NCBI GenBank assembly: GCA_048887225.1
Contig: JBHLJY010000010.1
Span: 23,838-87,837, forward strand
Origin: Candidatus Hodarchaeota archaeon
GTDB taxonomy: Archaea; Asgardarchaeota; Lokiarchaeia; Sigyniarchaeales; SOKP01
Direction of reading: 5' to 3'
DNA length: 64,000 bases
The notes below the pieces were generated by a model. That model worked only from the letters and a program-made list of their open reading frames with translations, made no database searches and was not told where the DNA came from. Shown here piece by piece: positions 2,598 to 61,377 of the stretch (the first letter of the stretch is position 1; the number at the start of each line of letters is the position of its first letter). The translations under genes and the position numbers were made by a program.

Positions 2598-5231
2598 ATG
2601 GCTTATCAAAAAGAAAATTTTCGTGAAAAATATAGAGATTTGTTTGAATATTCATTAGATTTAATTTACCTTCATGATTTAAAAGGTACTATCTTGGATG
2701 CAAATAACACAACATTAACGAGTTTTGGCTATAATCAAGAAGATCTCTCGAACATTTCCTTTATAGATTTAATCGATAATGAGCAGGTAACAAAATTTTT
2801 TAATGCTTTAAAAGAAATTGAGGAAAATGGAAAATCTTTGAAAAAATACGTATACAAAATCAAAAGAAAAGATGGAAATTATCTTTATATTAAAACACAT
2901 GGAATACCGCTCAGGAAAAACGATGTAATTTATGCTATATTAAATATTGGAAATGATATCACTGAGCGCATGATTAAAAAAAAAACCCTAAAAGAATCTG
3001 AAGAAAGATATCGGCTTTTCTTGGAAAATGCAAATGATTTAATTTCCATTATTAACGAGAAATTTGAATTTAAATACATCAACGAAAAAGTTCATAAAAA
3101 ATTAATGGGATATTCAAATGAAGATTTAATAGGTAAGTATGTATTAAAATTTATCCATCCAGATGATGTTGAAAAAGTCAATGAAGCTGTAAATAAAGCT
3201 TTGGAAAGTGCCGAAGCAAATGTAGAAATAAGATTTCGAAATAAAAAAGGGGATTATATTTGGCTTGAAGTTAGGGGAAAGGTATTTTTCGATAATAATG
3301 ACCAAAAAGGTCTTTTAATTTCAAGAGATATTTCAGAGCGCAAAAATACGGAACAAAGGTTAAAAGAATCCGCAGAAAAATACCGCCTTATCACGGAAAA
3401 TGCAAATGATTTAATTGTTATCCTAGATGAAAAATTTAAAGTTGAATACGTTAATGAACAAGTTGTTTCGAAATTTTGGGGATACTCAAAAGAAGAAATA
3501 GTCGGTAAATCTTCATTAGAATTCATACATCCAGACGATCATAAAATTGCTATTGAATCCCTTAAGAAAGGATTTATAGATGGCGCAGGCTCTGCAGAAA
3601 TAAGGCTTAAAAATAAAATGGGAGATTGGTTATGGTTCGAATGTCTGGGAAATATATTTCTTAATACAAAAGGCGAATCAAAAGCTCTAATCATTTGTAG
3701 AGATGTGGATGAAAAATATAAAACAAATCAAACACTAAAAGAATCTGAAGAAAAATACCGGCTTATCTCTGAAAATGCAAATGATTTAATTGTAATTTTA
3801 AATAATAAATTTATAGTTGAATACGTTAATGAACAAGTTGTCTCGAGATTATGGGGATATTCAGGAAAAGAAATAGTCAGTAAATCTGGATTAGAATTCA
3901 TACATCCCGACGATCATATAATTGCTCTTGAAGCCTTTAGGAAAGCGCTTATAGATGGCGTAGGCTATACAGAAATAAGGCTTAAAAATAAAATTGGAAA
4001 TTGGTTATGGTTTCAAATTAGTGGAACTAAATTTCTTAATAATAAAGGTGAAGTAAAGCTTCTCATAATTGGAAGAGATGTGAATGAAAGATATACAACA
4101 GAGCAAAAATTAAAAAATTCAGAACGAGATCTTAAGGAGCGAGTTAAAGAACTCACTTGTTTATACGAATTATCAAAGCTTCTTGAAAATCCAAATCTTT
4201 CTTTAGAAGAAATAATAAAAAAAACTCTCAATTTAATTCTATCTGCATGTAAATTTCCTAATTCTACATGTGTGAAGATTATATTTAATACTAATGAGTT
4301 TAAAACGAGTAATTTTATGGAGACAGAATATGAATTATCAATGAGTATTGAAGTCCAAAAAAAAGAATTGAACATTAAACTTTATCATCTTGATGATAAA
4401 CCATTTCTCAAGGAAGAAGAAAATTTAATAATGGATATCGGAAAGCGATTAAAAGCTATTATTGAGAAAATACAAGCTGAGGATAAATTACGACAATTTA
4501 TTTCCTTAGTTTCTCACGAATTACGAAATCCAATATCAGTACTTGTACAGACATTAAACAACTTGGAAAAGTACAAGGATAAAATTTCAAAAGAAATGAA
4601 AATCAAATTAAATGAAGCTCTCTCTCGAAATGTTAAATTACTATTTGATTTAGTAGAAGATCTTTTAATAACTTCTAGAATTGATGAGAAAAGAATAAAG
4701 TTAATCTGGAGAGAGTACCGACCTTATCAAATTATTCGTGATTTGATAGAGCTAATGAATCCCATTCGAGAGATGAAAGAAATAACTATTGAGCTTAATA
4801 TAGATAAAGAACTTCAATTATTCGGAGATTACAGAAGAATAAGTCAAATTTTTAGAATTTTACTCGATAATGCCTTAAAATACTCCTATGAAAAGTCAAA
4901 GATAATCATTAATACTGTGGATCATTACAAAGGAAAATATAATTCACAGGAGATTGATGGTGTATTATTTCAATTCAAAGATTTTGGATTAGGCATCAGT
5001 GAAGAAGATTTACCACATTTATTTGAGCGTTTCTTCAGAGCAAGAAACGTGGAAACTATTTCTGGAACAGGTTTAGGATTAGCTATTGCAAAAGAATTAA
5101 TAAATCTTCATTATGGAGAAATATTTGTTGAGAGTAAGTATGGAATAGGAACGACTTTTTCGGTATTTCTCCCAAGATTGGAAAAGTTCTTAGAAAACGA
5201 AATAAATGGTCAATTAATAAGTATAAAATAG
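2598..5231 (+). CDS. Cytoplasmic multi-PAS (4x PAS/PAC) sensor histidine kinase
   Basis: Repeated PAS signatures (ENANDLI, FIHPDD, RD), H-box SHELRNP, N-box LLDNALKY, G1 DFGLGI, F-box FERFFR, G2 GTGLGL; no TM helix. Confidence 0.95.
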   Translation: MAYQKENFREKYRDLFEYSLDLIYLHDLKGTILDANNTTLTSFGYNQEDLSNISFIDLIDNEQVTKFFNALKEIEENGKSLKKYVYKIKRKDGNYLYIKTHGIPLRKNDVIYAILNIGNDITERMIKKKTLKESEERYRLFLENANDLISIINEKFEFKYINEKVHKKLMGYSNEDLIGKYVLKFIHPDDVEKVNEAVNKALESAEANVEIRFRNKKGDYIWLEVRGKVFFDNNDQKGLLISRDISERKNTEQRLKESAEKYRLITENANDLIVILDEKFKVEYVNEQVVSKFWGYSKEEIVGKSSLEFIHPDDHKIAIESLKKGFIDGAGSAEIRLKNKMGDWLWFECLGNIFLNTKGESKALIICRDVDEKYKTNQTLKESEEKYRLISENANDLIVILNNKFIVEYVNEQVVSRLWGYSGKEIVSKSGLEFIHPDDHIIALEAFRKALIDGVGYTEIRLKNKIGNWLWFQISGTKFLNNKGEVKLLIIGRDVNERYTTEQKLKNSERDLKERVKELTCLYELSKLLENPNLSLEEIIKKTLNLILSACKFPNSTCVKIIFNTNEFKTSNFMETEYELSMSIEVQKKELNIKLYHLDDKPFLKEEENLIMDIGKRLKAIIEKIQAEDKLRQFISLVSHELRNPISVLVQTLNNLEKYKDKISKEMKIKLNEALSRNVKLLFDLVEDLLITSRIDEKRIKLIWREYRPYQIIRDLIELMNPIREMKEITIELNIDKELQLFGDYRRISQIFRILLDNALKYSYEKSKIIINTVDHYKGKYNSQEIDGVLFQFKDFGLGISEEDLPHLFERFFRARNVETISGTGLGLAIAKELINLHYGEIFVESKYGIGTTFSVFLPRLEKFLENEINGQLISIK
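3361..4095 (+). repeat. Intragenic ~375-nt tandem duplication (PAS3/PAS4)
   Basis: Near-identical DNA at a 375-nt offset, e.g. gaaaatgcaaatgatttaattgt, gttgaatacgttaatgaacaagttgt, cagaaataaggcttaaaaataaa. Confidence 0.85.
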
Positions 5232-5264
5232 AAAAAAATAACGTGTAATTAAGGTTGAAAAAAA

Positions 5265-5642
5265 ATGAACCCGCTAATACTTATAGTTGATGATAATGTT
5301 GATTTGTTATTAAATCTACAAATGACCTTGGAATTCAATAATTATAAAGTTCTTTCCGCAGAAAATGGAAAAGAGGCTTTAAAAATTCTCAAAGAAATTG
5401 ATTACCTTCCAGAACTCATTATAAGTGACATTATGATGCCTAAAATGAATGGATATGAATTATTCAAGACTGTATCCAAAAATTCGCGTTGGAATAGTGT
5501 TCCCTTTTTATTTTTGAGTGCATACTCTCCTACAAAAGAAGATATAATAGATAATAATATCAATACCAATGATATTATCATTAAACCATTTAAAGAAGAT
5601 GAGTTACTCAGAATTATTTCTGATAAAATAACTATGAAATAA
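5265..5642 (+). CDS. Stand-alone response regulator receiver (CheY-like)
   Basis: ILIVDD, ISDIMMPKMNG (phospho-Asp), FLSA, KPF. Confidence 0.93.
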   Translation: MNPLILIVDDNVDLLLNLQMTLEFNNYKVLSAENGKEALKILKEIDYLPELIISDIMMPKMNGYELFKTVSKNSRWNSVPFLFLSAYSPTKEDIIDNNINTNDIIIKPFKEDELLRIISDKITMK

Positions 5643-5716
5643 GAGAAAAATTTTTTCTCTTTAAAATTTATAGATCTAAAATAGTAAAAAATAAAACAAA
5701 AAAAAGTTGTAAAAAT

Positions 5717-6601
5717 TTGAATCCGTTAATACTTATAGTAGATGATAATATTGATTTATTATTAAATCTACAAATGACCTTGGAATCCAATGATTATGAA
5801 GTTCTTTCCGCAAAAAATGGAATAGAAGCTATAGAAATTCTCATAGAACTTGATCGCCTTCCAGAAATCATTATAAGTGACATTATGATGCCTAAAATGA
5901 ATGGATATGATTTATTTAAATCTTTATCAGAAAATCCAATTTGGAATCGTATTCCATTTATATTTTTATCTGCTCGAGATGCGCCTGAAGATATTAGATT
6001 TGGAAAAATGTTAGGTATCGATGATTATATTATTAAACCATTTAGAGAAGAGGATTTACTCGCAATTGTTGCTGGAAAAATTTCTCGAAATAGAAACATT
6101 GAATTAATTAATAAAAAAATAGAAGAAATGTTCTCATCCTTGAAAATAGACATAACTCCTTCAATTTCTGATAAAGAAAAAAGTCATATTATTTTGTTAT
6201 GTATGTATTGGGATGATAAATATGGTCCTAAATTAATATCTCATTTTCCTAGAGATATAAATTTGCCATTTAAAATGGAAAAAGTAGGACAACAGTTATT
6301 TAATGCCATAACAACTCTTTATGGGTATGAAGATATAACCAAAGCTGAAGGAATTTTACTTAATATTGAAAATATTAAAATGAATGGATTTATTTTCTTC
6401 GATTCATATAAAGATGTTACTGTAAGAGGGGGAGAGCAACAATATATGATAGGATTAGTTGCTTCCAAGATAAATTATTTTGAATCTTTAAAAATAAAGG
6501 AAATTTTTATAGAAATATCTTTAAAAATAAAAGAGAAGGAAAATTGGGAAATAGAAAAATACTGGGAAAAACTTTCAACCATTTTATCTTACCATTTTTA
6601 A
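5717..6601 (+). CDS. Receiver domain fused to C-terminal uDENN/longin-like domain
   Basis: REC aa 1-122 (D55). C-terminus has the uDENN/longin strand-GP motif LCMYWDDKYGPKLISHFP and the motif KDVTVRGG (R237). Confidence 0.8.
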   Translation: MNPLILIVDDNIDLLLNLQMTLESNDYEVLSAKNGIEAIEILIELDRLPEIIISDIMMPKMNGYDLFKSLSENPIWNRIPFIFLSARDAPEDIRFGKMLGIDDYIIKPFREEDLLAIVAGKISRNRNIELINKKIEEMFSSLKIDITPSISDKEKSHIILLCMYWDDKYGPKLISHFPRDINLPFKMEKVGQQLFNAITTLYGYEDITKAEGILLNIENIKMNGFIFFDSYKDVTVRGGEQQYMIGLVASKINYFESLKIKEIFIEISLKIKEKENWEIEKYWEKLSTILSYHF

Positions 6602-6688
6602 ATGTCATATATGCTTTTAATAAAGAAAATAGATAAAGCAAAAAAGTTGTTGATATAGAATAAATTGATTAAAAAATCAGGTATTAAT

Positions 6689-7204
6689 ATGAAAAAGAGT
6701 GTTAAAATCATTATCGCTGGAGACGGCGGAGTTGGAAAGACTACTTTCTTGCACAGATTCATCACCGGCAAATTTTACTCTAAGTTCGAACTGACTAAAG
6801 GTGTCTCCTTTTTTAATAAAGATTTGAAAATAAATAGAGAAGTCTACCAATTGATATTATGGGACTTTGCTGGACAACTTCAATTTAGAGAGCTTCTACC
6901 AGATTTTGTTAAAGGTTTGGTTGGTGCAATCCTTATGTTTGATTTATCTAGATTTGACACTTTAAAGAGATTAGATAATTGGGTAAAAATGATTAACAAA
7001 GAACAAATTGTTCCAATAATCATCGTAGGAGGCAAGTACGATTTAGTAAAGGATGAGATAGAGACTATTCTGAATATAGACAATATTATCTTAAACTTTC
7101 TAATGAACAACGACACATGTTTCTCTTATTTAAAAACATCCTCAAAAACTGGATATAATGTAAAAAAAGCGTTCGATTTATTAATTTATGAACTCATTTT
7201 ATAG
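6689..7204 (+). CDS. Rab/Ras-like small GTPase
   Basis: G1 GDGGVGKT, G2 Thr (LTKGVSF), G3 WDFAGQ, G4 GKYD, G5 SSK. ATG at 6689 preferred over the TTG at 6665. No C-terminal prenylation motif. Confidence 0.93.
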   Translation: MKKSVKIIIAGDGGVGKTTFLHRFITGKFYSKFELTKGVSFFNKDLKINREVYQLILWDFAGQLQFRELLPDFVKGLVGAILMFDLSRFDTLKRLDNWVKMINKEQIVPIIIVGGKYDLVKDEIETILNIDNIILNFLMNNDTCFSYLKTSSKTGYNVKKAFDLLIYELIL

Positions 7205-7454
7205 GTTGTTTAAAAAATTTCGATAAATATTTAATACAGATTTTATCGTTCCAATTGACTTTAATTTTAAAAAATGTCGTTGTCAACTACAAGATCATTA
7301 TTGGGAAAATAAATAAAAAAGCTTCAATAAGATTTTCGTTTCTTATTTTCCTTTGAAGTTTAAGTTTATACAATCTATATTTTAATTTATAAATTATAAA
7401 TGGTAAAAATCACTTTCTTAAATAATAGACATTACATGAAATTTGGGAATAAAA

Positions 7455-7994
7455 ATGATTAGCGATAAATTAAAATTAGATGATATAGACCGTAAAATAA
7501 TATCATTAGTTCAAGAATATCCAGATATGACGCACACACAAATAGCAGAAAAAATCGAACGGTCGCAACCTACGGTTGGAATGCGAATTAAGAAGCTTGA
7601 AAAGTCGGGGGTTTTACAATTCCAGCCAGGAATAAATTTTAAAAAAGTTGAGCTTTTTTTAGCAACTGTTGAATTAAATACAAAAGATCCCGATATAGTA
7701 ATGGATATGGCAAAATGTTGTCCATTTATGCTCAATGCATTTAGAGTTAGTGGTGAGCATAATGTATGCGTTCTTTTGGCGAGTTCAAACCTAGAAAAAC
7801 TTGAAAACGTTGTTAATTACCATTTTCGTGGTAAACCAGATGTAAGTAGGGTTTCAATGGAAGTCATAACGGAGATTGCAAATGATTTAATAATGCCAAT
7901 AGATTTTGATTCTGAAATCCATGAACCAACATTAGAAAGTGGCTGTGGCGAGAAATGTAAATTTCTCATTGCTAAAAAAGAAGGTAGGATTTAA
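7455..7994 (+). CDS. Lrp/AsnC family transcriptional regulator
   Basis: LDDIDRKII...HTH...RIKKLEKSG, then a RAM domain (SGEHN). ATG at 7455 is the likely start (ORF track uses 7443). Confidence 0.9.
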   Translation: MISDKLKLDDIDRKIISLVQEYPDMTHTQIAEKIERSQPTVGMRIKKLEKSGVLQFQPGINFKKVELFLATVELNTKDPDIVMDMAKCCPFMLNAFRVSGEHNVCVLLASSNLEKLENVVNYHFRGKPDVSRVSMEVITEIANDLIMPIDFDSEIHEPTLESGCGEKCKFLIAKKEGRI

Positions 7995-8008: not shown

Positions 8009-8587
8009 TTATTCTTCTTTTTCGATATCTTGAAACTTAAACTTTGGTAAATCTTCCTTTAAATGACAATCTGGTCCGCAATATCGACCGTTAAAATTCT
8101 CAATTTGGAAGTCAATAGGGACAACAAAGTCGTGAATGCTGTCTATTAAAATATTAGTTTTTACGTTAATTACGTCGTTATCTTTACGAAAGCATAAATC
8201 AATCAATCTCTCAATAGTTTGTAGGTCGGAAGCTGAAATAAAACACAAGAGATTGAATTCTCCGCTGATTTTAAAAGCATGATTAATAAAAGGGCAGTCT
8301 TGAATTTTTTCTACAATCTTATCAACATCTTTTGTAGATATAAATACAATCGCAACTTTAATATCAACTTTCTTGATATTAAATCCAACTTGTTTTGTTA
8401 GGAGATGTTTACGCTCTAGTTTTATTATTCTAGCTCCTACTGCTGGTTGACTCTTTTCAATTTCTTTCGCTATATCTGAGTGTGTAATGTCTGGATCTTT
8501 TTCTATCATCTCGATGATTTTTTTATCATCGTCATCAATACTTAATAACTCATTAAAATTTTTTTTCTTCATGGTCATTATGAACAT
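8009..8587 (-). CDS. Lrp/AsnC family transcriptional regulator (paralogue, convergent)
   Basis: IDDDDKKII, SQPAVGARIIKLE, SGEFNL; alignable with 7455..7994. Confidence 0.9.
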   Translation of the reverse strand: MFIMTMKKKNFNELLSIDDDDKKIIEMIEKDPDITHSDIAKEIEKSQPAVGARIIKLERKHLLTKQVGFNIKKVDIKVAIVFISTKDVDKIVEKIQDCPFINHAFKISGEFNLLCFISASDLQTIERLIDLCFRKDNDVINVKTNILIDSIHDFVVPIDFQIENFNGRYCGPDCHLKEDLPKFKFQDIEKEE

Positions 8588-8722: not shown

Positions 8723-9241
8723 CTATAATACTTCAAGTATGGCGTCTATGTCGAGCCAGCCCTGTTTTGCGTGGATTAATGTCCCATCAGTATCAACAAC
8801 AAATTGTCCAGGACCTTGTTGCTCCCACCCTTCGTATTCACCATGTTCTATTCCGGCTTTTAAGGTTTCTTTCAGCTTACTCCTTACCTGTTTTATTGCT
8901 TCAGATGTCATCATACCCAATCCATAATCTTTGTATAATTCATCTTTTGAGCTGGGAATTACTGGAAAACTGATATTTTTCTTTTCAATAAATTCTTTTG
9001 CTACTTTTTCACCAGACTGCGTTATATATAATATTTTAGCTCCTTTATGAATAATCTCAAATAATCTAGCTAACAATCTATTTAGGTCTAAATGGCAAAT
9101 AGGACATCCAAAATATCTTGAAAAAATTATAACGATTTTTTGTTTACCTATTTCCTCCGCTAAATCAATTGTACCTGCATTATATGAGTCCAATTTAAAT
9201 AAAGGTGCCTTATCTCCAACTTTTATTTCATTTACGCCCAT
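8723..9241 (-). CDS. Peroxiredoxin-like AhpC/TSA (redoxin) protein
   Basis: VGDKAPLF, RYFGCPIC (CxxC), PGQFVVDTDG. Confidence 0.85.
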   Translation of the reverse strand: MGVNEIKVGDKAPLFKLDSYNAGTIDLAEEIGKQKIVIIFSRYFGCPICHLDLNRLLARLFEIIHKGAKILYITQSGEKVAKEFIEKKNISFPVIPSSKDELYKDYGLGMMTSEAIKQVRSKLKETLKAGIEHGEYEGWEQQGPGQFVVDTDGTLIHAKQGWLDIDAILEVL

Positions 9242-9442: not shown

Positions 9443-10249
9443 GTGATTTATAAATTGGTAAAAAAAGAGTATATTTGCGACGCAGGTAAGAAAAGTAAAA
9501 TTGTTATTGAAGATTTTACTGTTCAGATTAAAGAAGGTTCAACATTAATATTAGGATTTGCGGGTATTGGTTTAATAGGCCCTATTATAGCAAATCAACT
9601 CATAGAACAAGTCCCAGACATCAAAGAAATAGGATTTCTTGTTTCAGATTATTTACCACCAATATCTGTGTTTTATGAAGGTGTTTTAAAACATCCATTT
9701 CGATTACTTTATTCTCCTACACACAACATAATTGTTGGTGTTTGCGAAGTACCTTTCCAAACTCCATCTGCGTATAATGACTTGGCAAAGACTATATGTA
9801 ATTGGGCATTATCAGAAGACGTTCATGCAAAAGAAATTGTCATTTTTCAAGGCATACCGCAGCGGGGGATAATAGACGATTATCCCGTTTATTATGCTGC
9901 CGAAGCTGAGATGATAGATATCCTTGAAAAGCATGGTATTGCGAAAGTTGAAAAAGGAATTATCGTCGGCCCTGAAGCGACTGTTTTAAATGAAGCTTTA
10001 ACTAATAGATTAAGATCTTATGCTCTCTTTACACCTGTGTTAGAAATTCCTACGCCAGAAGGTGCAGCTGCGATAATTGAAGTCTTAAACGATATTTATA
10101 ATTTAAAACTTGATACATCTAAGCTTATAGAGGAAGGAAAAGAAATTAAAGCCAAAATGTTAGAATTAGCACAGAAAGCGCAACAATATCAGAGACAACA
10201 ACAACTTCCAGAAACGGGGAAAGAGGGATATACCCAATATTTTCAATAG
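9443..10249 (+). CDS. PAC2-family proteasome assembly chaperone-like protein
   Basis: GFAGIGLIG, PPIS...HPFRLLY, PTPEGAA, LIEEGKEI. True start may be the TTG at 9455 after the GTGAT SD. Confidence 0.85.
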   Translation: MIYKLVKKEYICDAGKKSKIVIEDFTVQIKEGSTLILGFAGIGLIGPIIANQLIEQVPDIKEIGFLVSDYLPPISVFYEGVLKHPFRLLYSPTHNIIVGVCEVPFQTPSAYNDLAKTICNWALSEDVHAKEIVIFQGIPQRGIIDDYPVYYAAEAEMIDILEKHGIAKVEKGIIVGPEATVLNEALTNRLRSYALFTPVLEIPTPEGAAAIIEVLNDIYNLKLDTSKLIEEGKEIKAKMLELAQKAQQYQRQQQLPETGKEGYTQYFQ

Positions 10250-11506: not shown

Positions 11507-12733
11507 ATGAGTCCTTCTAAGTATGCCTATTTAGATTATAACGCAACTACACCAATGGACCCACGAGTGATCGAAGAAATAAATAAACATTTTAAGGAAA
11601 CATATGGTAATGCTTCAAGTTTACATTCAATGGGTCAGAGAGCACATCATGTAATGGAGCAATCTAGAGAGACGATTGCCTCATTAATTAATGCCGATAA
11701 TGAAGATATTTTTTTCACATCATCAGGTACTGAAGCAGACAATCTTGCTATTAAAGGTGTAGCATTCAAATGCAAAGATCGTGGCAATCATATTATTACA
11801 TCGTCGATAGAGCATCATGCGGTCGAAAATCCCTGTAAAGAACTCGAGAAAGAGGGCTATAAAGTTACTTTTTTGCCAGTTGATAAATATGGATTAATTG
11901 ATTTGAATGAATTTGAGAATACTATAACTGACAAAACAATTTTAATTACCATTATATTTGCCAATAATGAAATTGGTACTATAGAGCCAATTAAGGAGAT
12001 AGGGGAGATCGCAAAAAAACATGATATAATTTTTCACACGGATGCTGTCCAAGCGATTGGAAAAATTCCGATAGATGTCCAAGATATGAATATTGATTTA
12101 TTATCTGCGAGTGCTCATAAGCTCTACGGTCCTAAGGGGATTGGTATGCTCTATATCCGTAATAAGGGAAAGAGAAAAGGATGGGGCAAATATATTGAGC
12201 CACTTATGCACGGAGGAGGACATGAAAGAAAAATGAGGCCTAGTACTGAAGCTGTTCCTTTAATAGCAGGTTTTGCTAAGGCTGTCGAACTTTGTAGAGA
12301 AGATATGACAAAAGAAATGGAGCGGCAAACAAAACTTCGAGATAAAATCATTAAAACCGTTACTGAAAATATTGAAGATAGCTATTTGAATGGTCATCCA
12401 ACGCAACGTCTCCCAAATAATGTTAATTTAGGCTTTCAGTTCATAGAAGGTGAATCGATTTTACTAAGTTTAGACATAGAAAATATAGCAGCTAGTACGG
12501 GTTCGGCATGTTCTTCAAAATCATTGGAAGCTTCTCACGTTTTATTGGCGATAGGCTTAAAACCAGAAGAAGCGCATGGTTCATTAAGGATTTCATTTGG
12601 TAGATTTACAACTGAAGAGGATATTGATTATTTTCTTGAAAAGCTACCTCCAATCATTGAACGGTTAAGAAATATGTCGCCGCTCAGGAAGGGAGTTAAA
12701 TATATGTTTGATGAAACTGAGCATCATCACTGA
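11507..12733 (+). CDS. iscS: Cysteine desulfurase IscS/NifS
   Basis: YLDYNATTP, HTDAVQ, SAHK (PLP lysine), STGSACSS catalytic Cys. Confidence 0.96.
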   Translation: MSPSKYAYLDYNATTPMDPRVIEEINKHFKETYGNASSLHSMGQRAHHVMEQSRETIASLINADNEDIFFTSSGTEADNLAIKGVAFKCKDRGNHIITSSIEHHAVENPCKELEKEGYKVTFLPVDKYGLIDLNEFENTITDKTILITIIFANNEIGTIEPIKEIGEIAKKHDIIFHTDAVQAIGKIPIDVQDMNIDLLSASAHKLYGPKGIGMLYIRNKGKRKGWGKYIEPLMHGGGHERKMRPSTEAVPLIAGFAKAVELCREDMTKEMERQTKLRDKIIKTVTENIEDSYLNGHPTQRLPNNVNLGFQFIEGESILLSLDIENIAASTGSACSSKSLEASHVLLAIGLKPEEAHGSLRISFGRFTTEEDIDYFLEKLPPIIERLRNMSPLRKGVKYMFDETEHHH

Positions 12734-13269
12734 TGAATCTTCCTAAATTCATCCTCTAAAATACTCATAAAATACATATTTACAAAATTTCCTTCTATCA
12801 TATAGTGGTCCCTTAAATTTCCTTCTTCAATAAATCCACACTTTTTATAAACGTAGATTCCAATTTGATTATCTTCGGCAACATATAGATAAACTTTATG
12901 AAGCTGATGCTCATTAAAGGCATGATCAAGAAGCAAATTAACTGCACGAATACCATGCCCCTTGTTTCTTTCACTTTTATTACCAATGGTTATAGAGAGA
13001 CAACCGTGTTTAGAAGGCCAATGAATCTGTTCAATCGCAACATTACCTAAATAAGTTCCAGTTTCATTTTCTATCGCGTAGAAAAAATCAACTTTACTTT
13101 TTATCTTACTTTCAAGCCATTCAGCTTCCTCCTCTCGTGTGAAAGGTTTAGTAAAATACGCATAACGGTAAACGACTTCTGGGTCATTTACCCACGTCAT
13201 AATCTTATCAAGATCATCCATAGTTAAGGGTCTAATTTTTGTCTCTTTATATTCGAGCAACTTTAACAC
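12727..13269 (-). CDS. GNAT (RimJ/RimL/SpeG-like) N-acetyltransferase
   Basis: RNKGHG acetyl-CoA motif, N..GI.VYKKCGF.EEG. Confidence 0.88.
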   Translation of the reverse strand: MLKLLEYKETKIRPLTMDDLDKIMTWVNDPEVVYRYAYFTKPFTREEEAEWLESKIKSKVDFFYAIENETGTYLGNVAIEQIHWPSKHGCLSITIGNKSERNKGHGIRAVNLLLDHAFNEHQLHKVYLYVAEDNQIGIYVYKKCGFIEEGNLRDHYMIEGNFVNMYFMSILEDEFRKIHQ

Positions 13270-13477
13270 CTAAATTATTTTGTATTTTAATGAAAATTAC
13301 AGAATTTATACTCTTTTAGATAGCAAAAAAGTTAAAGATTTTCTTTTTTAAAATTAAATGGGGATAACCTCAAATTTAAATCGATTTTTTTTCTTATTTT
13401 AAAAAAGCTAATTTTTTCGTTTCCAAAATTGATAAATTTCGTAAAAATTAATTTATTGGCGAGATTTGTTTGAAATA

Positions 13478-15730
13478 ATGAGTACTGAGAAATTTATATT
13501 CAACAATAAAACAATCGCAATCGAAGAAAAAAAAGAGTTGGATTCTTCTTACAAAATAAAATCTTATAAGAAAAAAATGGAAATGATTGAAAAAAAGAAA
13601 ATTCCTCAAAAAGAGATTTTGGAAGTTATTAATCACTTATTCACGAAAAATCCATTTCTCTCAAAAAAAACTAAAAATTCTGTATCAAAAATAATTTATT
13701 CTAAAGAGGACAGTATAATTATTGCTATAACCAACCACGGAAAAGAGTTTATTTGGAATCGGGACAAATTTATTAGGGAATATGGCTGGTTTTTCTTTGT
13801 TTCTGAGACCGAAGATGGAAGTGCCCCAAAAAAGAAAGCGAAAAAAGTAAATAAAGAAGAAGTCACTGTTAGCACAAATGAATATGAGTTTAAAGACAAC
13901 AAGATTCTACTAAAACAAAAAGAAAATATGCGAGGATTGTATAAAACTAAAGAATATTTCAAGTATTTTAAACTCGTAAATTCGAAAAAAATCCCTCAAA
14001 AACCAATTAAAGAGGTATTGGATGAGTTTTTTGCAGATGATAAAATCCTAGAAAAGGAAAAGTTAACTGTTCAAAGAATCAATTATTATATTGATGAGAA
14101 AGTAATAGTCATTAAATCTATTATTGGAGATAAAATGTATGAAAATCTTGAATGGTTAGTTAAGCAACATGGATGGTACTTCTATATCACAGGTGTGCCC
14201 GTCGGAGATAGTGCTATTTCACTTGCTATTGATAAAATTGAGAGAAGATTTAATGCTGATTATTTTAAAAATATTAGTCTTAATGATCACAGTGAATCAG
14301 AAAAAATTAGAGTTTCAATTTATCCTCTTGTCTTAAGACCTAATCATAACTGTATAATTCTAGGATTAGGTGAAATCACGATCTTGTTAGATTGCGGAAT
14401 TGATTTAGAACATTATTCTCGATATATTGAAGATTATCTCGCATATTTACCTCAGTATATTAAAGACGCTGAAGGAGGTGTTGGGATTGATGAATCTGAA
14501 AATGAAAATGAAACAATTGCTTTCACGCCTAAACTTGACGCTATCTTTATCTCCCATAGTCATTTCGATCATATTTCTGGTCTAAAAGATTTAATCAAAA
14601 AATATCCTGATATTCCAATTCTCTGTTCTCGCATTACCTTGGATTTATATCTGCTTAGAGATTCAGAGTTCTTGAAGCAGTATAGCCACGATATTATTGA
14701 AGACGAGGAATATCAGAAAGTTATCAGAAATGTAATTTATGTAGAAAACGGAGATAAGATGGAATTCAAGAATCGAAATTGTTTTTTATCCTTTTTCCAT
14801 GCAGGACATATGCCAGGCGCTTTAATGCTAATGGCTAAAATTAATGATTTTAGATTCCTTTATACAGGAGATTATACTTATTATGATATTACACCTTTTG
14901 CAGGAACCCAAAGATTTTTGGAGCAAATTTCGAGACCGCTGGACTTTCTCTTAATTGATGCCTCATGTGCATATGAGGAATTTGGTGATCCATCACATCA
15001 ATTTCAAGATTTAATTCTTTTCTTAGAACAAAAAGCAGAATATGGAGATAATTGCCTAATCGGTGCTGACCCATCAAGCCTCGCAGTTAGTTTTATGCTG
15101 ATATTTTGGCGTCATTTTCGCAAGCTTCAATTAAAAAAAGGGTATGAAAAGAGACCTAATATTTACGTTGATCAAATGGTTCGAAAGAACATTCAAGTAC
15201 TAAATCATCGTTATGAATATATTTATGGTCCTATCTCGAGATTAATTCGAGATAAAGCCAATCCTTTTAATTCTATTAAAATAAGATGGTTCGATCTCGA
15301 AGATTTAGAATTTCTACGAAAAAAGAATAACATCATAATTTCTCATCCTCCCGATCTTTCATATGGAATTATTAGAAATATAATTAATGTGATCGGGAGA
15401 AATTCACATAATATAGTATATCTCTCAGGAGCAATTCACGAGCAACCGGGATTAGATCTTATTGGAGGTGCAGATGAAATATCCTTTTCAGAAACTTGGA
15501 AAGTGCCAATTAGAGCTTTATTGTTAAACACGTTTGCACCTCAATTGAAGATTAAGCTTCATGGAGACAAAAAACAATTAACAGAAATGATAAAAAATCT
15601 TGAACCTAAAGAAGTATGTTTTTTTCACCAAAGTCCCGTTAAACTATATGAGGTTGTGGAATATGTAAAAGATTTAGGTGTAGAAAAAGTGAGCGTGCCT
15701 CAAAAAAGAAAATTTATAGTATTAAATTGA
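13478..15730 (+). CDS. MBL-fold beta-CASP ribonuclease-like protein with duplicated N-terminal domain
   Basis: LLDCG, SHSHFDH, AGHMPGA, YTGDY, LHGD, FFHQ; two ~115-aa N-terminal repeats. ATG at 13478 (ORF track uses 13466). Confidence 0.85.
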   Translation: MSTEKFIFNNKTIAIEEKKELDSSYKIKSYKKKMEMIEKKKIPQKEILEVINHLFTKNPFLSKKTKNSVSKIIYSKEDSIIIAITNHGKEFIWNRDKFIREYGWFFFVSETEDGSAPKKKAKKVNKEEVTVSTNEYEFKDNKILLKQKENMRGLYKTKEYFKYFKLVNSKKIPQKPIKEVLDEFFADDKILEKEKLTVQRINYYIDEKVIVIKSIIGDKMYENLEWLVKQHGWYFYITGVPVGDSAISLAIDKIERRFNADYFKNISLNDHSESEKIRVSIYPLVLRPNHNCIILGLGEITILLDCGIDLEHYSRYIEDYLAYLPQYIKDAEGGVGIDESENENETIAFTPKLDAIFISHSHFDHISGLKDLIKKYPDIPILCSRITLDLYLLRDSEFLKQYSHDIIEDEEYQKVIRNVIYVENGDKMEFKNRNCFLSFFHAGHMPGALMLMAKINDFRFLYTGDYTYYDITPFAGTQRFLEQISRPLDFLLIDASCAYEEFGDPSHQFQDLILFLEQKAEYGDNCLIGADPSSLAVSFMLIFWRHFRKLQLKKGYEKRPNIYVDQMVRKNIQVLNHRYEYIYGPISRLIRDKANPFNSIKIRWFDLEDLEFLRKKNNIIISHPPDLSYGIIRNIINVIGRNSHNIVYLSGAIHEQPGLDLIGGADEISFSETWKVPIRALLLNTFAPQLKIKLHGDKKQLTEMIKNLEPKEVCFFHQSPVKLYEVVEYVKDLGVEKVSVPQKRKFIVLN

Positions 15731-19000: not shown

Positions 19001-22000
19001 ATGGAAGAACCGACTGAAGATGATATAAATATTAAACTTGGTGGTATGACATGTGCCAACTGTGCCTTAAAAATAGAGAATAAGTTGAAAAATCTAGATG
19101 GAGTCAGTAGTGCTGTAGTAAATTTTGCTAACGAAGAAGCGACGGTTCAATATAATCCTAATATAACAGACTATAATGTTTTTAATAAAGCTATAAAAGA
19201 TTTAGGATATAAGGCCTCATTATCTAAAATTGATATTAAAGTTATTGATGAGCTTTCAGAAGAAAAATTTGAGAATTTATTAGAGAATGTAAAAAATATA
19301 AGTGGAATACATAATATAAGAGGTAATTATAGGGCGGGTAAACTTTTCATAGAATTTAACGAGCTAAAGATTGATGAAAATGGCGTATATTCAAAAATAA
19401 AACAATTCGGATATAAAATTGAGAAATCTGCTGGTGCTATGGATAAAGAGATCGAAAAGCATAAAAAAGAATTAAAATATCGACGACGAATTTTTATAAC
19501 TTCTTTAATTTTTTCGCTAATAATTACGCCTATAAGTTGGTTTATAGTAGAATCATTCGAAAGAAACTTAATCTTATTCTTTTTAGCCACAATAAATTAT
19601 GCTATATCAGGATCGTTTTTTTTAAAAGGTGCGTATAAGTCTTTAAAAAATAAATCTACCAACATGGATGTACTAGTAGCGTTAGGAACTACAACAGCGC
19701 TTGTTTACTCGATATTAACGACTTTTTTTATATCTGGAAGAACATTTTATGAAGCCATGAGTATGATTCTTACTTTCTTATTGATAGGAAAATACCTTGA
19801 ACACAAAACTAAAGGCCAAACATCTGAAGCTATTAAGAAATTAATCGGTTTACAACCGAAATCCGCAACAATCTTAAAAGATGGTCAGGAAATAGAGATC
19901 CCTCTTGAAGAGATTGAAATAGGAGATATTTTAGTGGTACGACCTGGTGAAAAAATCCCTGTTGATGGTATAGTAATTCAAGGTAAAACTAAAGTAGATG
20001 AGTCAATGATAACAGGTGAAAGCAAATACGTTAAAAAGGAAGTTGATAGCGAAGTAATTGGTGCGACAGTAAACCAAACTGGTTTAATTCATATGAGAAC
20101 CGAGAAAATTGGAAAAGATACATTATTATCTCAAATCATTGATTTTGTAAAGCAAGCTCAAAGTAGGAAAGCTGCAAAGCAACAATTAGCCGATAAAGTC
20201 AGTAATTATTTCGTACCTCTTGTTATTATAATTGCTATAGGATCGTTTTTATATTGGTATTTTATTGGATCTCTTATGTACCCAGAACTTCAAAGTTCAA
20301 GACTCGAAACAGCTTTATTAGTATTTACTTCCGTAGTAGTTATTGCCTGTCCATGTGCTTTAGGATTGGCTATACCGACAGCTGTGATGGTTGGAACGGG
20401 GAAAGGTGCTGAAAATGGGCTCTTAATAAAGGGAGGCGATTCCTTAGAATCTATAAATAACGTAAATACCATTGTATTTGATAAGACTGGAACATTAACT
20501 GTTGGAAAACCAAAAGTTTCTGTGATCTTTGCTGAAAAAGATTTGAAAGGTCAAGGCTATGATACAAAAAAATTATTATATTATGCTGGAAGTGCTGAAA
20601 TGGGATCAGAACATCCGCTCAGTTTGGCTATAATTGAAGAAGCTAACCAACAAGGACTTTCGCTCGAAACTCCTTCAGAATTTGATGCTATTCCAGGTAA
20701 AGGAATCTCAACAAAAATAGATGGTAAAATTCTACTAATTGGAAATGAAAGACTAATGTTAGATAAAAATATCCCAGTAAATGGTTATTCGAATAAATTT
20801 AATGAGTTTCAGCAGCAAGGAATAACTTCAATTTTAGTCAGTATTGATAATGAAGTGAAGGGGATTATAGGTATTTCAGATAAAATTAAAGATCAAGCAC
20901 CTTACGCTTTAGATCAATTACGAGGAATGGGGCTAGATATTTATATGCTTACAGGGGATAATAAACAAACCGCACTAACTATAGGAAAAGAATTAAAAAT
21001 TGACGAAAAACATATTTTAGCAGAGGTCTTACCAAACGAAAAAGCTCTTACAATTAAAGAACTTCAAGATTCTGATGAAAATATAAGAGTAGGCATGGTT
21101 GGTGATGGAATAAACGACGCACCTGCTTTAGCCCAAGCTGATGTAGGTATAGCTGTAGGCTCAGGTACAGATGTCGCTATTGAAACAGCAGATATAGTAT
21201 TAATGAGGGGTGATCTAAGAAATGTCGTTTCTGCGATTAAATTATCTAAAAAAACCTATAAAAAGATGATAACAAATCTATTTTGGGCTTTCATCTATAA
21301 TATCATTGGAATTCCACTCGCCGCAGGATTATTATATAGCTTAACAGGATATTTCTTGCCTCCATATCTTGCAGCAGTATTTATGGCTACAAGTTCAGTT
21401 TCGGTCGTTTCCAATGCGTTGTTTTTAAAAAGATTTGAACCAAAAACTGAGCAGCAAATTGAAGAAGAAAGATTATTACTTGAGGAAAAAGTAATTGATC
21501 CGATATGTGGAATGGAAATAATACCTAGTCAATCAATTGAGTATAAATTTAAAGGTGAAAAATATTATTTTTGCAGTTCATCGTGCGAAATTGAATTTAA
21601 ACAGAATCCTGGAAAATATAAAGACTTTGACAATATTGATCCTAAACTTATGCATGTGATAAAAGAAGATTTAGACGAGGGAGAATTAGTAATTGATCCT
21701 GTGTGTGGAATGAAAGGAAAGCCAGAAGACTGGATTGAACACGAACACATAGGAGAAAAATATTATTTCTGTAATCCATCTTGTCTACAAAAATTTAAAG
21801 AAACTCCTGAAAAATTTATAAAAAAGAAAGAAAATAATGAATTAAAAGAAAAAACTAAAATTGAGGATGATAAGAAAATGGGAAATTTAGAATGTACTAA
21901 TTGTAGCGTTAAATTGGAACTTCCTCAACATTGTGGGAAGCCTATGCATAAAGAAGGTGACCAACTTGTGTGTTGGATGGGACCCGAATGTGGTTCTCAA

Positions 22001-22045
22001 CCCATCCCTGAACACTGTGGAGCGCCTATGGATGTTAAAGAATAA
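19001..22045 (+). CDS. copA: Cu(I)-translocating P1B-type ATPase with two C-terminal YHS/TRASH domains and a Cys/His tail
   Basis: [37 protein letters not shown]/MxxSS Cu(I) signatures; DPxCGM...YYFC x2. Confidence 0.95.
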
Positions 22046-31027: not shown

Positions 31028-32518
31028 TTATTCGCTCCCTCCCTCTGTATTGTGTAATTTATTTGATAATTCTCGTTTTTGAGCTTCTAATTCTTTTATT
31101 TTATTTGATAATTCTTGTTTTTGAGTTTCTAATTCTTTTATTTTATTATTTAAAGAATTAATAGAACTTTCCAAGTGGGATGTATTTGAGGTTAAATTGG
31201 ATAAAAAAGTCTGAGTTTCATTTTGTAAATCACTAAATTTTTTTGTTAAAATCTCGATTTGTTCTTTAATATTTTCTCTAAATTTTTCTTGAAATCCTTT
31301 TAATTTGTCTGAAGTTAACTTTTCTATTGATTTTATTTTTTCAGATAAATTTTCTAAAGATAAATGTTGTTGATCTAAATTTTCTGAAGATCTAACGTTT
31401 TTATTAGTCATTTCTGTTAAAATCTTTGAATTTTCATCTAAAATTTGCACAATTTTATTTAGTGAAATTTTAATCTTTTCTTTAAATAATTCATTTATCT
31501 TTAGAGGAAGTTCTTCTTTTAATTTAACCATCAAATTTTCAATATCTTCTCGATCTTTATCAAAAGTTTCAAATCGATCATCTATATAGACTTCAAGCTC
31601 ATTTAGCTTATCTATTAATGAAAATTTAAAATTATTCTGAATAGTATCAAGCCCTTGTTTTAAGCTGTCTTTTAACTCTATTAAATCACCTCTTATTTGT
31701 AAATTATTCTCCATCGTAATTTTTATAATTTCCTGACTCCAAGAGTTAAAATAATTTATTAGTGGTTCAATTGAAAATTGTAAAAAATTTGAAATCCCAT
31801 TATATAAAGCTGAGAATATTTCTTTTAGTTTTAATTCGGGTTTGGCTGCTAATAATTCGCTTTTGTCAGGAAAGAAAATTTCGCCAAAAAGATCCGGAGT
31901 TTCATTGATTTCTAAAATTGGTGGCTCTTGGGAGTGAATAATATTTATTAATTCCATTAATTTAATGTAAAACTCCATATTATCGGGATGTTCTACTCTT
32001 GTTTCTACTTCGTGATATTTTGATTTTGAACCCTTCGAAGGATCGTCAAGTCTGAAAGTTCTAAAACCCAAATCTTCTGGATTTTCTAAATAAGTATGAT
32101 CAAAAACAATCCCGATGGCGCTTGGATTTGGAGTTTGCCAACCAAGTTGATTGAGAATATCTGTTCCTGAAAAAAATATTTGTAAGCCAGGGTGGCTATG
32201 ATACCAACCTACTGTAAACCAATTTTTCTCGGCAAACTCTTCATCCACTTGAGCAAAAGTTATATAATCTTCAGGTGCAAATGCAACTTCAATCGACCCT
32301 CCATGTGAAATCGGAACAGCTTCTTCAACAATAACATTTTTTATTACTCCTTCGCCTTCAAGATGCCCAATTAACATACCCATTACTTCTCTATATTGTC
32401 TAGGATCTCTCGCTCTATTACCAAAACGTAGAGTATGAACTAACATTTTGTAATATGCTAACGGTTTGATCACAACTATTTCATTAGTATCATTTAGCTT
32501 TGAACGGCTTTTACTCAA
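31028..32518 (-). CDS. MPN+/JAMM metalloprotease domain + long coiled coil
   Basis: EVMG...GWYHSHPGLQIFFSGTD is an intact JAMM motif. Confidence 0.88.
   Translation of the reverse strand: MSKSRSKLNDTNEIVVIKPLAYYKMLVHTLRFGNRARDPRQYREVMGMLIGHLEGEGVIKNVIVEEAVPISHGGSIEVAFAPEDYITFAQVDEEFAEKNWFTVGWYHSHPGLQIFFSGTDILNQLGWQTPNPSAIGIVFDHTYLENPEDLGFRTFRLDDPSKGSKSKYHEVETRVEHPDNMEFYIKLMELINIIHSQEPPILEINETPDLFGEIFFPDKSELLAAKPELKLKEIFSALYNGISNFLQFSIEPLINYFNSWSQEIIKITMENNLQIRGDLIELKDSLKQGLDTIQNNFKFSLIDKLNELEVYIDDRFETFDKDREDIENLMVKLKEELPLKINELFKEKIKISLNKIVQILDENSKILTEMTNKNVRSSENLDQQHLSLENLSEKIKSIEKLTSDKLKGFQEKFRENIKEQIEILTKKFSDLQNETQTFLSNLTSNTSHLESSINSLNNKIKELETQKQELSNKIKELEAQKRELSNKLHNTEGGSE
31058..31147. 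repeat. 42-nt tandem repeat (two heptads per unit) at the coiled-coil end
   Basis: tttatttgataattctYgtttttgagYttctaattcttttat x2; protein NKIKELETQKQELS/NKIKELEAQKRELS. Confidence 0.85.
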
Positions 32519-59130: not shown

Positions 59131-61377
59131 TTAAATTTTTGCCATTAAATTAAGTAAATATTCATCAATTTTCTTTAGTACTGGTCTTAGTCTCTTGGTT
59201 AGGATGTTTTGAATTTCATATTTTGACAAATATTTTTCATTATTATTTCGTAATTCATCTACGGTTGATTTTGCTATAAATTCCCCCATTTTTCCAAGAT
59301 CTACTAATTTACAGTGAATTTTATTTTTTCTACTAAATTTTTTAATAGGACTTTCTAGTGGAATTTTAAATATATGTCTAGAGCTTCTCTTTATTTGGAT
59401 TTGTTTAGTCATAATATTTGAATTCAATAGTGCTACTAGATAGTATGCTTCATCAATGTTTTCTGTGGCATAAAAGCTTAAATCTCCAGTAACTAAATAA
59501 TTTCCGTGAATTATCGCTGAATTTAGAATTGAGCCTGAATTATTGTAAACAACTTTAATTTTGGATAATTGTCTTTTATTTATCAATTTTGACCATCGAT
59601 TTAAGTTATCCATCAAAGATTTATGGCTAGTTGTGCTTTTCTTTAATTTTAAATAGATCTTATTAATTTTATCATAGAAATTTTTAGCATATGGCAATAA
59701 TTGGTTGTAATTAAAGCTCAAATCTACTTTTGAAAGAGGTAAAAAAACTTTGAAATAATCAAATATATAGAATTTTACTAATTCTGTACTTTTAACTATT
59801 TTAAAAAGATATTTTTCTTCAACAATTTCGTTTTCAAACTCCTTTTTATTCCAAGGCGTTTTAGATCTTTTAAAAATTCTTTCGTCAGGATTTATCTTTA
59901 ATAAAAAATCGTTTATATTATCAACTGTAACGAATATTAAATTTCTTGGATTTAAATCTGCTCCCTTATGAAATAAATTTTTGTAATAACTCTCTCCAGA
60001 GAGGAATAATTTATTTCTTTGTTTTTTTAGAATTAGTTTTTTAGTATAAAATTTATTTCCTTTTTTTTCAATAGAATAAGGAACTAAAGTCTTAATTTCT
60101 TTCAGTTTTAATTCTATATCAGTAAAGTAATTTATATTATTATTTTCATTTTTTAATGTGAAATGATAATCTGGCACTTCTAAATTCAAATTTAGTTGAG
60201 TTTTTTCGGATTTTTGAGCTAAAATGCATAAAAAATCAATGTTAAATATTTTTTCAATCTTTTTATTAAACGTCCAGATTTTAACATTCTTAAATCCTTT
60301 AAAATTGCGAAATCGAGATGCATGGGAGCCAGTTATTACACCTTTGGGTATTACAAAAAATATTTTGCCATTCTTTTTCATAAAAAGATTTTTCGATTGA
60401 TAGAAGAAAAGTGCTGAAATTTCAATATTAAGAATATTTTTTGGTCTTGGTTTAACTTCAAGTTGTTCTGCTAACTTTTTTATTTTTTCTTGTAAAGAAG
60501 AAGATTCTATATCTCTGAAAGTATACCATGGTGGGTTTCCTATTACGAGATCAAATATTTTTTTTTCATTTTGAAATAAAGAATCTACTACATACAAATT
60601 AATATGTAAGTCCTCACAGGTTGATAGATCTTTAAGAAATATTAAGAAATTAATTTTAGAGATAAAAATTGCGATTGGATTAAAGTCAAAGCCATAAACA
60701 TTATTAATTGCTAAAATTTTTTCTAGTTCGTTTTTATTAGCTGAAATTATTTTTTTTAATATTTCAATCAAGAAATTTCCTGACCCACAACAAGGATCAA
60801 GAACCGACTCTCCAAAATTATAAGCTTCGCTAATCATCTTTTTTACTAAAAATGGAGGAGTATAATATTCACCTGATTTATGTCTAATTATTGGAGAGAT
60901 TATGTTTTGAATCAAATAATCAAATTTATATTCAAGATTAATATCCAAATTAAAGGTATATTCAGCTAGATTGCTAATGAGTGATCTGTATGAACTAAAA
61001 TCTGGGTTTTCATATAATTTAATTAATGGAAGAAAATACTCAAAATTAAATAAATTAAGACATTTGAAATTTTCTTTAATAAATCTTTGGCAATTTTCAA
61101 AAAATTCGATGTTTATATTTTTATAATTAATAGATTTATTTTTATTTATAACAAATTTAAAGATAAAAATATGTCCGATGAAATATATCAGAGAAAAAAT
61201 AATATATAATTCTACATTTACGCTTTTTGGACCATATATCAATTGAAAATCATTATACCAGCTTTTGAAATGATTATCTTTGTTAATTTTTTCTTTAAGT
61301 ATAAAATCCTTTAAGTTTTTAATTTCCTCATCTAATTTAAAATTACTATTTTTAAAATATCCTAAAGTACTAAACAA
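59131..61377 (-). CDS. N6-adenine DNA methyltransferase with C-terminal target-recognition region
   Basis: GEYYTP, LDPCCGSGNF (SAM motif I), IGNPPW (motif IV), ALLNS. Confidence 0.9.
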   Translation of the reverse strand: MFSTLGYFKNSNFKLDEEIKNLKDFILKEKINKDNHFKSWYNDFQLIYGPKSVNVELYIIFSLIYFIGHIFIFKFVINKNKSINYKNINIEFFENCQRFIKENFKCLNLFNFEYFLPLIKLYENPDFSSYRSLISNLAEYTFNLDINLEYKFDYLIQNIISPIIRHKSGEYYTPPFLVKKMISEAYNFGESVLDPCCGSGNFLIEILKKIISANKNELEKILAINNVYGFDFNPIAIFISKINFLIFLKDLSTCEDLHINLYVVDSLFQNEKKIFDLVIGNPPWYTFRDIESSSLQEKIKKLAEQLEVKPRPKNILNIEISALFFYQSKNLFMKKNGKIFFVIPKGVITGSHASRFRNFKGFKNVKIWTFNKKIEKIFNIDFLCILAQKSEKTQLNLNLEVPDYHFTLKNENNNINYFTDIELKLKEIKTLVPYSIEKKGNKFYTKKLILKKQRNKLFLSGESYYKNLFHKGADLNPRNLIFVTVDNINDFLLKINPDERIFKRSKTPWNKKEFENEIVEEKYLFKIVKSTELVKFYIFDYFKVFLPLSKVDLSFNYNQLLPYAKNFYDKINKIYLKLKKSTTSHKSLMDNLNRWSKLINKRQLSKIKVVYNNSGSILNSAIIHGNYLVTGDLSFYATENIDEAYYLVALLNSNIMTKQIQIKRSSRHIFKIPLESPIKKFSRKNKIHCKLVDLGKMGEFIAKSTVDELRNNNEKYLSKYEIQNILTKRLRPVLKKIDEYLLNLMAKI

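Follow-up and report, generated by a model that had tools for sequence, protein, structure and literature searches.

We analysed a locus on a contig of a Candidatus Hodarchaeota archaeon (GenBank assembly GCA_048887225.1, contig JBHLJY010000010.1) at which a response regulator with a longin-type output domain is encoded between genes for a sensor histidine kinase and a small GTPase. The window is the whole stretch of 64,000 nucleotides that was analysed (positions 23,838 to 87,837 of the forward strand of the contig). Coordinates without prefix are window positions, and codes beginning with P, L and G are labels of proteins, loci and the genome, G000 being the window genome. Four co-oriented open reading frames (ORFs) on the forward strand, separated by gaps of only 33, 74 and 63 nt, encode a soluble sensor histidine kinase with four PAS domains, a HisKA and a HATPase_c domain (2598..5231), a stand-alone receiver P0002 (5265..5642), the receiver-longin response regulator P0003 of 294 amino acids (5717..6601) and a Rab-like (RasL) small GTPase P0004 (6665..7204; Pfam Ras, 3.7e-32). 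A first-pass annotation, made from the letters of the sequence, had described four tightly spaced co-oriented genes and had proposed that phosphorylation of D55 in the third gene product controls a GAP (with R237) or a GEF for the small GTPase encoded next to it. The arrangement of the genes was confirmed, and the strings LCMYWDDKYGPKLISHFP and KDVTVRGG as well as D55 and R237 were all found as given there.

P0003 consists of a receiver (residues 1–120), a long α5/linker helix (111–141), a flexible stretch (142–151) and a longin domain (159–291). The receiver was recognised by Pfam (Response_reg at residues 5–118, 1.4e-23) and carries DD9-10, D55, S85 and K107, which identifies it as CheY-like; its phospho-acceptor aspartate D55 is encoded at 5879..5881 (+). 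For residues 138–294 (6128..6601, +) Pfam and NCBIfam returned nothing (Pfam E values up to 0.1), and the Pfam family Folliculin (PF11704) had no match anywhere in the window genome. A search of the PDB chains with the sequence profile of the longin domain gave as sole match a proteasome chain at E 1.3, attributable to chance, and the kinship of the domain to Folliculin and NPR2 (PF06218) became visible only by profile-profile and structural comparison.

An AlphaFold2 (AF2) model of residues 138–294, built with 37 family members, reached a mean predicted local distance difference test score (pLDDT) of 85 and showed the topology E-E-H-E-E-E-H-H, i.e. the β-β-α-β-β-β-α-α order of longin domains without the N-terminal helix of roadblock domains. 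The best structural matches were nearly all subunits of longin complexes with GTPase-activating protein (GAP) function: structural-match figures were 12.5 for the Lst4 longin, 11.7 for a Lokiarchaeal longin (8yqg), 11.5 for the active FLCN complex, 11.1 for C9orf72-SMCR8 and 11.0 for GATOR1, with DENN, TRAPP and SNARE longins at 9–10. Structural neighbours in the ESM Atlas included a Heimdall cluster partly matching Pfam Folliculin, an Asgard cluster partly matching NPR2, eukaryotic SMCR8 and C9orf72, and Asgard fusions of a GTPase with a longin. A roadblock/MglB assignment of the output domain was ruled out by the longin topology, with MglB ranking far lower. The earlier prediction of a longin-like output domain in place of a helix-turn-helix (HTH) is thus borne out by structural search, topology and profile-profile alignment. 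Its label longin/uDENN can be kept for the longin half, on the grounds of fold and motifs, while the uDENN half does not reach beyond the level of the fold and has no DENN core: P0003 ends three residues past the last longin helix, with no DENN, dDENN or NPRL2 C-terminal domain, and its structural matches to DENND1 span only the N-terminal 140 residues of that protein.

The P0003 family comprises at least 83 cluster representatives, all of them from Asgard archaea wherever the source names the organism. An alignment of 38 sequences, 49–93% identical to the window protein, showed D55, K107, W165, G170, P171 and R237 to be invariant and D166, D167 and D233 nearly so. According to the AF2 model of full-length P0003, the hairpin W165-D166-x-x-x-G170-P171 (6209..6229, +) joins longin strands 1 and 2 (residues 159–166 and 170–177), with the GP pair at the start of strand 2. 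R237, the candidate arginine finger, lies in a loop (residues 233–239; D233-x-x-x-R237 at 6413..6427, +) between strands 4 and 5 (222–232 and 240–249). The same two elements occur in those Asgard proteins that Pfam assigns to Folliculin at its cut-off, which share C-L-A-x-x-D-E-x-x-G-P and an invariant D-x-x-A-R-G(-G-E). An alignment of the P0003 family with these Asgard PF11704 longins by hhalign (probability 82%, E 1e-5) placed GP on GP and R237 on the invariant arginine. The arginine-finger loop of FLCN we take to read D-S-L-A-R-G; a phmmer search of the PDB with two of the Asgard PF11704 proteins (L130 and L127) returned no FLCN chain. The F-x-x-x-x-G-P strand and the D-x-x-x-R-G loop (originally written D-x-x-A-R-G), which had been put forward as GAP-type marks, are therefore retained as family invariants with R237 on the Folliculin-type arginine.

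A published analysis defines a GP motif where the loop preceding strand 2 ends, adjacent to the arginine finger, and finds it in FLCN, NPRL2, SMCR8 and C9orf72 and absent from the longins of FNIP2, NPRL3, TRAPP, adaptin and DENND (PMC12290439). The spacing of W165-D166 and G170-P171 in P0003 is exactly that of W33-D34 and G38-P39 in C9orf72 (PMC12290439). Alignments and models together support the assignment of the output domain as a stand-alone longin of the FLCN/NPRL2/SMCR8/C9orf72 class. The window genome contains other longin-containing genes and exactly one receiver-longin gene, that of P0003.

In the full-length model, α5 of the receiver continues as a 31-residue helix (111–141) that is followed by the flexible link. 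Residues 88–102 (5978–6022) were modelled with pLDDT values below 50 and without a helix; the α4 stretch R94–Y104 is the most conserved part of the receiver outside the active site. This region may be an element that depends on a partner or on phosphorylation.

The kinase encoded upstream (877 amino acids; PAS_3 1.1e-53 and HATPase_c 1.8e-24 in Pfam) has an intact H-box, SHELRNP, with H640 as the phospho-acceptor (codon at 4515). It had been described as a soluble kinase with four PAS domains, and this description agrees with the Pfam domains: four PAS domains, HisKA and HATPase_c were recognised, all of cytoplasmic type. The kinase gene ends 486 nt upstream of the P0003 gene, with the lone receiver gene sitting between them. 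In 62 related loci the receiver-longin gene is immediately preceded by a histidine kinase gene, the kinase in most of these being 47–56% identical to the core of the window kinase, and single-chain fusions of histidine kinase, receiver and longin exist (P0154 and P0156). Because of this adjacency and the occurrence of such fusions, the upstream kinase is supported as the cognate partner of the receiver-longin protein.

A second recurrent neighbour of the family is a small GTPase of another type than P0004. Across Asgard archaea the receiver-longin gene is typically the last of a co-directional cassette encoding, in this order, an ArsR-type HTH protein (about 111 amino acids), a small GTPase (about 182 amino acids; Pfam Arf 2e-21, Gtr1_RagA 3e-15), the PAS kinase and the receiver-longin protein, usually with a divergent AsnC gene upstream. 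The cassette was found in 52 of 80 species-representative loci, or 52 of the 67 with at least 3.6 kb of upstream sequence. The same GTPase adjoins the regulator where the gene order has changed, namely in a divergent layout (L121/L122), in a kinase-less layout (L076) and in a convergent layout in three genomes of the genus to which the window genome belongs (L102, L106 and L115). Among 61 genomes of the family, 48 have both regulator and GTPase, four only the regulator, one only the GTPase and eight neither (Fisher p 1e-6, calculated for related genomes that are not independent). In one genus (g8) neither gene was found in four of five genomes, two of these being 100% complete, and both are adjacent in the fifth. 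A metagenomic protein of 360 amino acids, P0127, even fuses an Arf-type GTPase to a longin that is 34% identical to that of the window and keeps WDExxGP and DETVRGG. The linkage of the longin family to a small GTPase is strong because synteny, co-occurrence and fusion all show it, and these data support a Rag/Arf-like GTPase as the conserved partner of the receiver-longin family across Asgard archaea. A full-text literature search found, among the papers it covered, no description of the cassette or of the exact operon of the window. As a separate observation, the G3 motif of the GTPase part of P0127 reads DLGGH, with histidine replacing the catalytic glutamine.

In the window genome the four genes of the cassette are not contiguous and co-directional. 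Kinase and regulator are parted only by the inserted receiver duplicate, and the single orthologue of the cassette GTPase (52% identical to that of L012 and 76% to that of L121; best Pfam match Gtr1_RagA, 1e-21) is encoded at G000:C10:4482-5027 on the reverse strand (L088). It and its neighbour, a gene for an ArsR protein of 115 amino acids, span 4482–5389, have SfsA and CysRS genes on their flanks and lie about 24 kb upstream of the regulator. This GTPase of 181 amino acids has the Arf-like motifs GLDNSGKT (G1) and WDLGGQ (G3) and the G4 motif HKFD, the form used by Rag/Gtr proteins, with NKxD in Arf proteins. Its best PDB matches were 8yl2 and 8zla ('GTP-binding protein', 342–385 amino acids), followed by Arf/Arl proteins; RagA was the only eukaryotic match spanning the whole G domain. 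In the family tree the window protein falls into a well-supported clade of eight rows outside the large cassette clade, and the contexts within this clade are mixed, with a Rab-like gene downstream, a divergent ArsR/Rag pair, or neither. This position and these contexts indicate that the cassette was split here and that the Rab-like neighbour is a late arrival.

On balance, we lean towards P0003 being a phosphorylation-controlled GAP-type longin regulator that uses an arginine finger and acts on the Rag-like GTPase, as judged from motifs, gene linkage and models. According to this mechanism, the soluble PAS kinase would respond to a signal from the cytoplasm, perhaps redox or stress, by phosphorylating D55 of P0003. 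The phosphorylation would probably be relayed via the α4-β5-α5 face and the long α5 linker helix and would alter the pairing or the exposure of the longin domains. A longin dimer could then bind the small GTPase, insert R237 next to the W-D-x-x-x-G-P hairpin and stimulate GTP hydrolysis. The conserved client would be the Rag/Arf-like GTPase that is encoded together with the ArsR-type regulator by a gene pair which, in most Asgard genomes, immediately precedes the kinase gene. As one chain has both the C9orf72-like WD..GP pair and the SMCR8/FLCN-like arginine, a homodimer could supply what eukaryotic heterodimers split between two subunits.

Several points weigh against this mechanism. The full-length model of P0003 has a predicted template modelling score (pTM) of 0.49 without a confident orientation of receiver and longin, and the conserved α4 block is poorly modelled. 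The equivalence of R237 with R164 of FLCN, R78 of NPRL2 and R147 of SMCR8 leans on a transitive profile alignment, on the position of the loop and on what has been published on related Asgard longins. P0003 also lacks the additional domains (DENN, NPRL2 C-terminal domain) of the eukaryotic longin GAPs, which form heterodimers, and many longin and roadblock platforms are guanine nucleotide exchange factors (GEFs) or scaffolds, not GAPs. Finally, the proposed client is encoded about 24 kb away on the opposite strand, so that co-regulation is not evident in this genome.

The target of the receiver-longin protein could instead, or besides, be the Rab-like GTPase whose gene follows after a gap of 63 nt, as the first-pass annotation had proposed; we consider this unlikely. 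P0004 is indeed a small GTPase of the Ras family, as had been stated from its G1–G5 motifs, with Rab9A, Rab4A and Rab6B as its nearest solved relatives (E about 1e-22). According to Vargova et al., Asgard 'RasL' proteins do not form a specific sister group of the Rabs. The probable start of P0004 is the ATG at 6689, corresponding to the 171-residue form called elsewhere, and its motifs are G1 GDGGVGKT, G3 WDFAGQ, G5 SSK and a non-canonical G4, GGKYD in place of NKxD. P0004 and 37 aligned relatives lack the asparagine of the NKxD motif; the consensus of this family is TKxD, with lysine and aspartate conserved.

Three observations speak for P0004 as a target: its gene and that of P0003 are co-oriented with a short gap and no terminator-like hairpin in it, the layout of kinase, receiver, receiver-longin and Rab-like GTPase is kept in two loci from other samples (L120 and L124), and two paralogous receiver-longin loci of Helarchaeota (L005 and L025) have Ras-family GTPases within three genes. 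Against it stands the narrow distribution of the layout, which recurs only in L120 and L124, with proteins 85–93% identical (regulator 90–93%), so that the adjacency is confined to relatives at least 85–90% identical. Beyond these the linkage dissolves: an 83% orthologue of P0004 lies among Fe-S and CCG genes without the receiver-longin regulator (L125), a 73% sister of the regulator stands head-to-head with an ArsR/Rag-like pair (L121), and the locus of a 69% relative (L118) consists of kinase, receiver remnant and regulator, then a gene for a CBS protein, with no GTPase nearby. No P0004-like gene was found within 1.5 kb of the regulator in any of 29 loci from genomes of the same family, and close orthologues of P0004 exist only at 80–85% identity, after which identity drops to 57%. 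Since the window genome has 46 Ras-family matches, P0004 being one of them, we would expect chance alone to give a few adjacencies among about 115 loci. The adjacent gene is therefore not supported as the wired target, and the expected synteny across Asgard archaea fails for the Rab-like gene and holds for the Rag/Arf-like GTPase instead.

An AT-rich, TATA-like sequence stands ahead of the start of P0004, so that this gene may have its own promoter. A sigma-70 promoter scan gave 37 sites against 39.6 expected and no hairpin terminators, this bacterial model being uninformative for an archaeon of 28% G+C content. For a predicted complex of two longin domains with P0004, GTP and Mg the scores were 0.00 and 0.01, the mark being 0.32, a result that counts neither way.

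The Rab-like neighbour is nevertheless a possible second client of P0003. One can speculate, with considerable doubt, that the cassette was rewired in this lineage: the pair of kinase and receiver-longin protein, parted from the Rag-like GTPase, would have gained a rapidly evolving Rab-like GTPase as well as a second receiver, and one phosphorylation-gated longin would control the Rag/Arf-like GTPase in trans and the Rab-like GTPase in cis. If true, the rewired cassette would correspond, in a prokaryote, to the reported Arf and potential Rab activity of C9orf72-SMCR8, and it would offer a natural experiment on how GAP specificity shifts.

Another account that we regard as improbable leaves the small GTPase in place and changes the activity: the longin would bind it as a GEF, as an effector or scaffold specific for one nucleotide state, or as a sequestering partner set by phosphorylation, in the manner of the MglB/RomR or TRAPP/Mon1-Ccz1 platforms. 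The known platforms of this kind make it worth considering. The GP motif, however, marks GAP-type longins and is absent from FNIP2, NPRL3, TRAPP, adaptin and DENND (PMC12290439); in the P0003 family GP and arginine are invariant and the WD pair is kept (W165 invariant, D166 nearly so), and the best structural matches are GAP-complex subunits. That the longin has no GTPase client at all and serves as a dimerisation or protein-binding module, e.g. for the ArsR or AsnC regulators, with the GTPase linkage reflecting shared regulation only, is very hard to credit: some longins (SNAREs, adaptor sigma subunits) do not regulate GTPases, but here the synteny survives several rearrangements, the genes of regulator and GTPase are lost and kept together, a GTPase-longin fusion occurs in the same sequence family and the catalytic-type motifs are invariant.

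P0002, a protein of 125 amino acids correctly recognised in the first-pass annotation as a lone receiver (Response_reg, 6.8e-22), is 62% identical to residues 1–123 of P0003. It retains DD9-10, D55, S85 and K107 and lacks the family-invariant block R94-G96-L99-G100-D102-D103-Y104. The gene is also present in L120 and L124, and a remnant of 66 amino acids was found in L118 (L118:7723-7923), the locus of the 69% relative. By this distribution it is a recent, lineage-specific tandem duplicate of the P0003 receiver. It would most likely compete for, or drain, phosphoryl groups of the same kinase.

Downstream of P0004 the window encodes an AsnC/Lrp-type regulator (7443..7994, +; Pfam HTH_24 and AsnC), which is 44–52% identical to the AsnC protein that is encoded divergently ahead of the cassette in 46 loci, and a second AsnC/Lrp-type regulator on the reverse strand (8009..8587; Pfam). 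The AsnC pair is followed by a peroxiredoxin gene (AhpC/TSA, 8723–9241). In many cassette loci, e.g. at L012:7664-10378, genes for HSP20, a thioredoxin reductase-like flavoprotein and two thioredoxin-domain proteins recur downstream. These genes, together with the peroxiredoxin of the window, are a hint of a redox or stress theme. Within a few kb of the regulator, genes for a cysteine desulfurase and for a metallo-beta-lactamase-fold protein of about 755 amino acids occur both in the window (11507–15730) and in a 68% relative (L123:3120-6984); the presence of the same pair in both indicates that the wider neighbourhood of the clade is inherited vertically. Further genes of the window encode a PAC2-family protein (proteasome assembly chaperone-like; 9443–10249), a heavy-metal P-type ATPase with HMA and YHS domains (19001–22045), a JAB/MPN-domain protein of 496 amino acids (31028–32518) and an Eco57I/MmeI-like N6 DNA methylase (59131–61377).

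A contig and a genome of the wider family deserve mention. The contig DATKTW010000054.1 (L039), labelled 'Candidatus Nanopelagicaceae bacterium' (Actinomycetota), carries a complete Asgard cassette that nests among Promethearchaeota in the tree and is probably a mis-binned contig. Helarchaeota LW55_61 has four receiver-longin paralogues. Two of them are found near Ras-family rather than Rag-like GTPases; a CxxCxxCC protein is encoded at one of these two loci, and an additional receiver together with an unannotated protein of 157 amino acids at the other.

Fusions of 'NPRL2-like longin' domains with two-component signalling domains in Asgard archaea were previously reported by Liu et al. (bioRxiv 10.1101/2020.10.19.343400, Fig. 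5c). Receiver and NPRL2/FLCN-like longin are joined there in the same architecture, in organisms of the same group, and the authors proposed that Asgard growth is regulated through two-component systems with 'eukaryotic' regulators. The available part of that preprint gives no GTPase partner, conserved cassette or motif analysis for the fusions and places most genes of eukaryotic signature proteins outside conserved neighbourhoods. The fusion class is thus already published, and the window, which adds no new principle beyond it, is a rearranged member of a cassette type made up of ArsR, Rag-like GTPase, kinase and receiver-longin protein.

Asgard longins of the FLCN/SMCR8 type with GP motif and arginine finger, as in P0003, were described recently (Traffic 2025, PMC12290439). 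That study covers 15 Asgard longins and asks whether ArfR or Rag/Gtr GTPases partner them; the words 'receiver' and 'response regulator' do not occur in it and gene neighbourhoods are not given, whereas the P0003 family has both a receiver and a conserved neighbourhood. In strain MK-D1, GTPase genes do not, as a rule, share an operon with roadblock or longin genes, so that Asgard small GTPases generally cannot be matched to such regulators (Tran et al. 2024). The receiver-longin family offers a concrete candidate pair of GTPase and regulator with a defined upstream kinase, and thereby a candidate answer to the question of the partner. The window genome is a convenient test case, with only one gene of the receiver-longin type, only one orthologue of the cassette GTPase and the Rab-like neighbour as a built-in control of specificity.

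A prokaryotic circuit of comparable components is the polarity module of Myxococcus xanthus, in which a small GTPase (MglA) is controlled by a regulator of the roadblock/longin superfamily (the GAP MglB) and which also includes a receiver-domain protein (RomR) with RomX. As described in the available accounts of that circuit, receiver and roadblock are on separate proteins there, MglB is a roadblock protein and not a GP-motif longin, and the GTPase is of the MglA type and not Rag/Arf-like. The eukaryotic longin GAPs are FLCN-FNIP2, acting on RagC/D, NPRL2-NPRL3 of GATOR1, acting on RagA/B, and C9orf72-SMCR8, acting on Arf and possibly Rab proteins. In contrast to these, P0003 combines WD..GP and arginine in a single chain without a second, different longin subunit and without a DENN or NPRL2 C-terminal domain, and its predicted input is His-Asp phosphorylation where theirs comes from amino-acid sensing complexes. 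Its proposed Rag-like client, at 181 amino acids, lacks the C-terminal roadblock domain of the Rag proteins. The system has the look of a small precursor, in prokaryotes, of the FLCN/GATOR1-Rag switch, with His-Asp phosphorylation as its gate.

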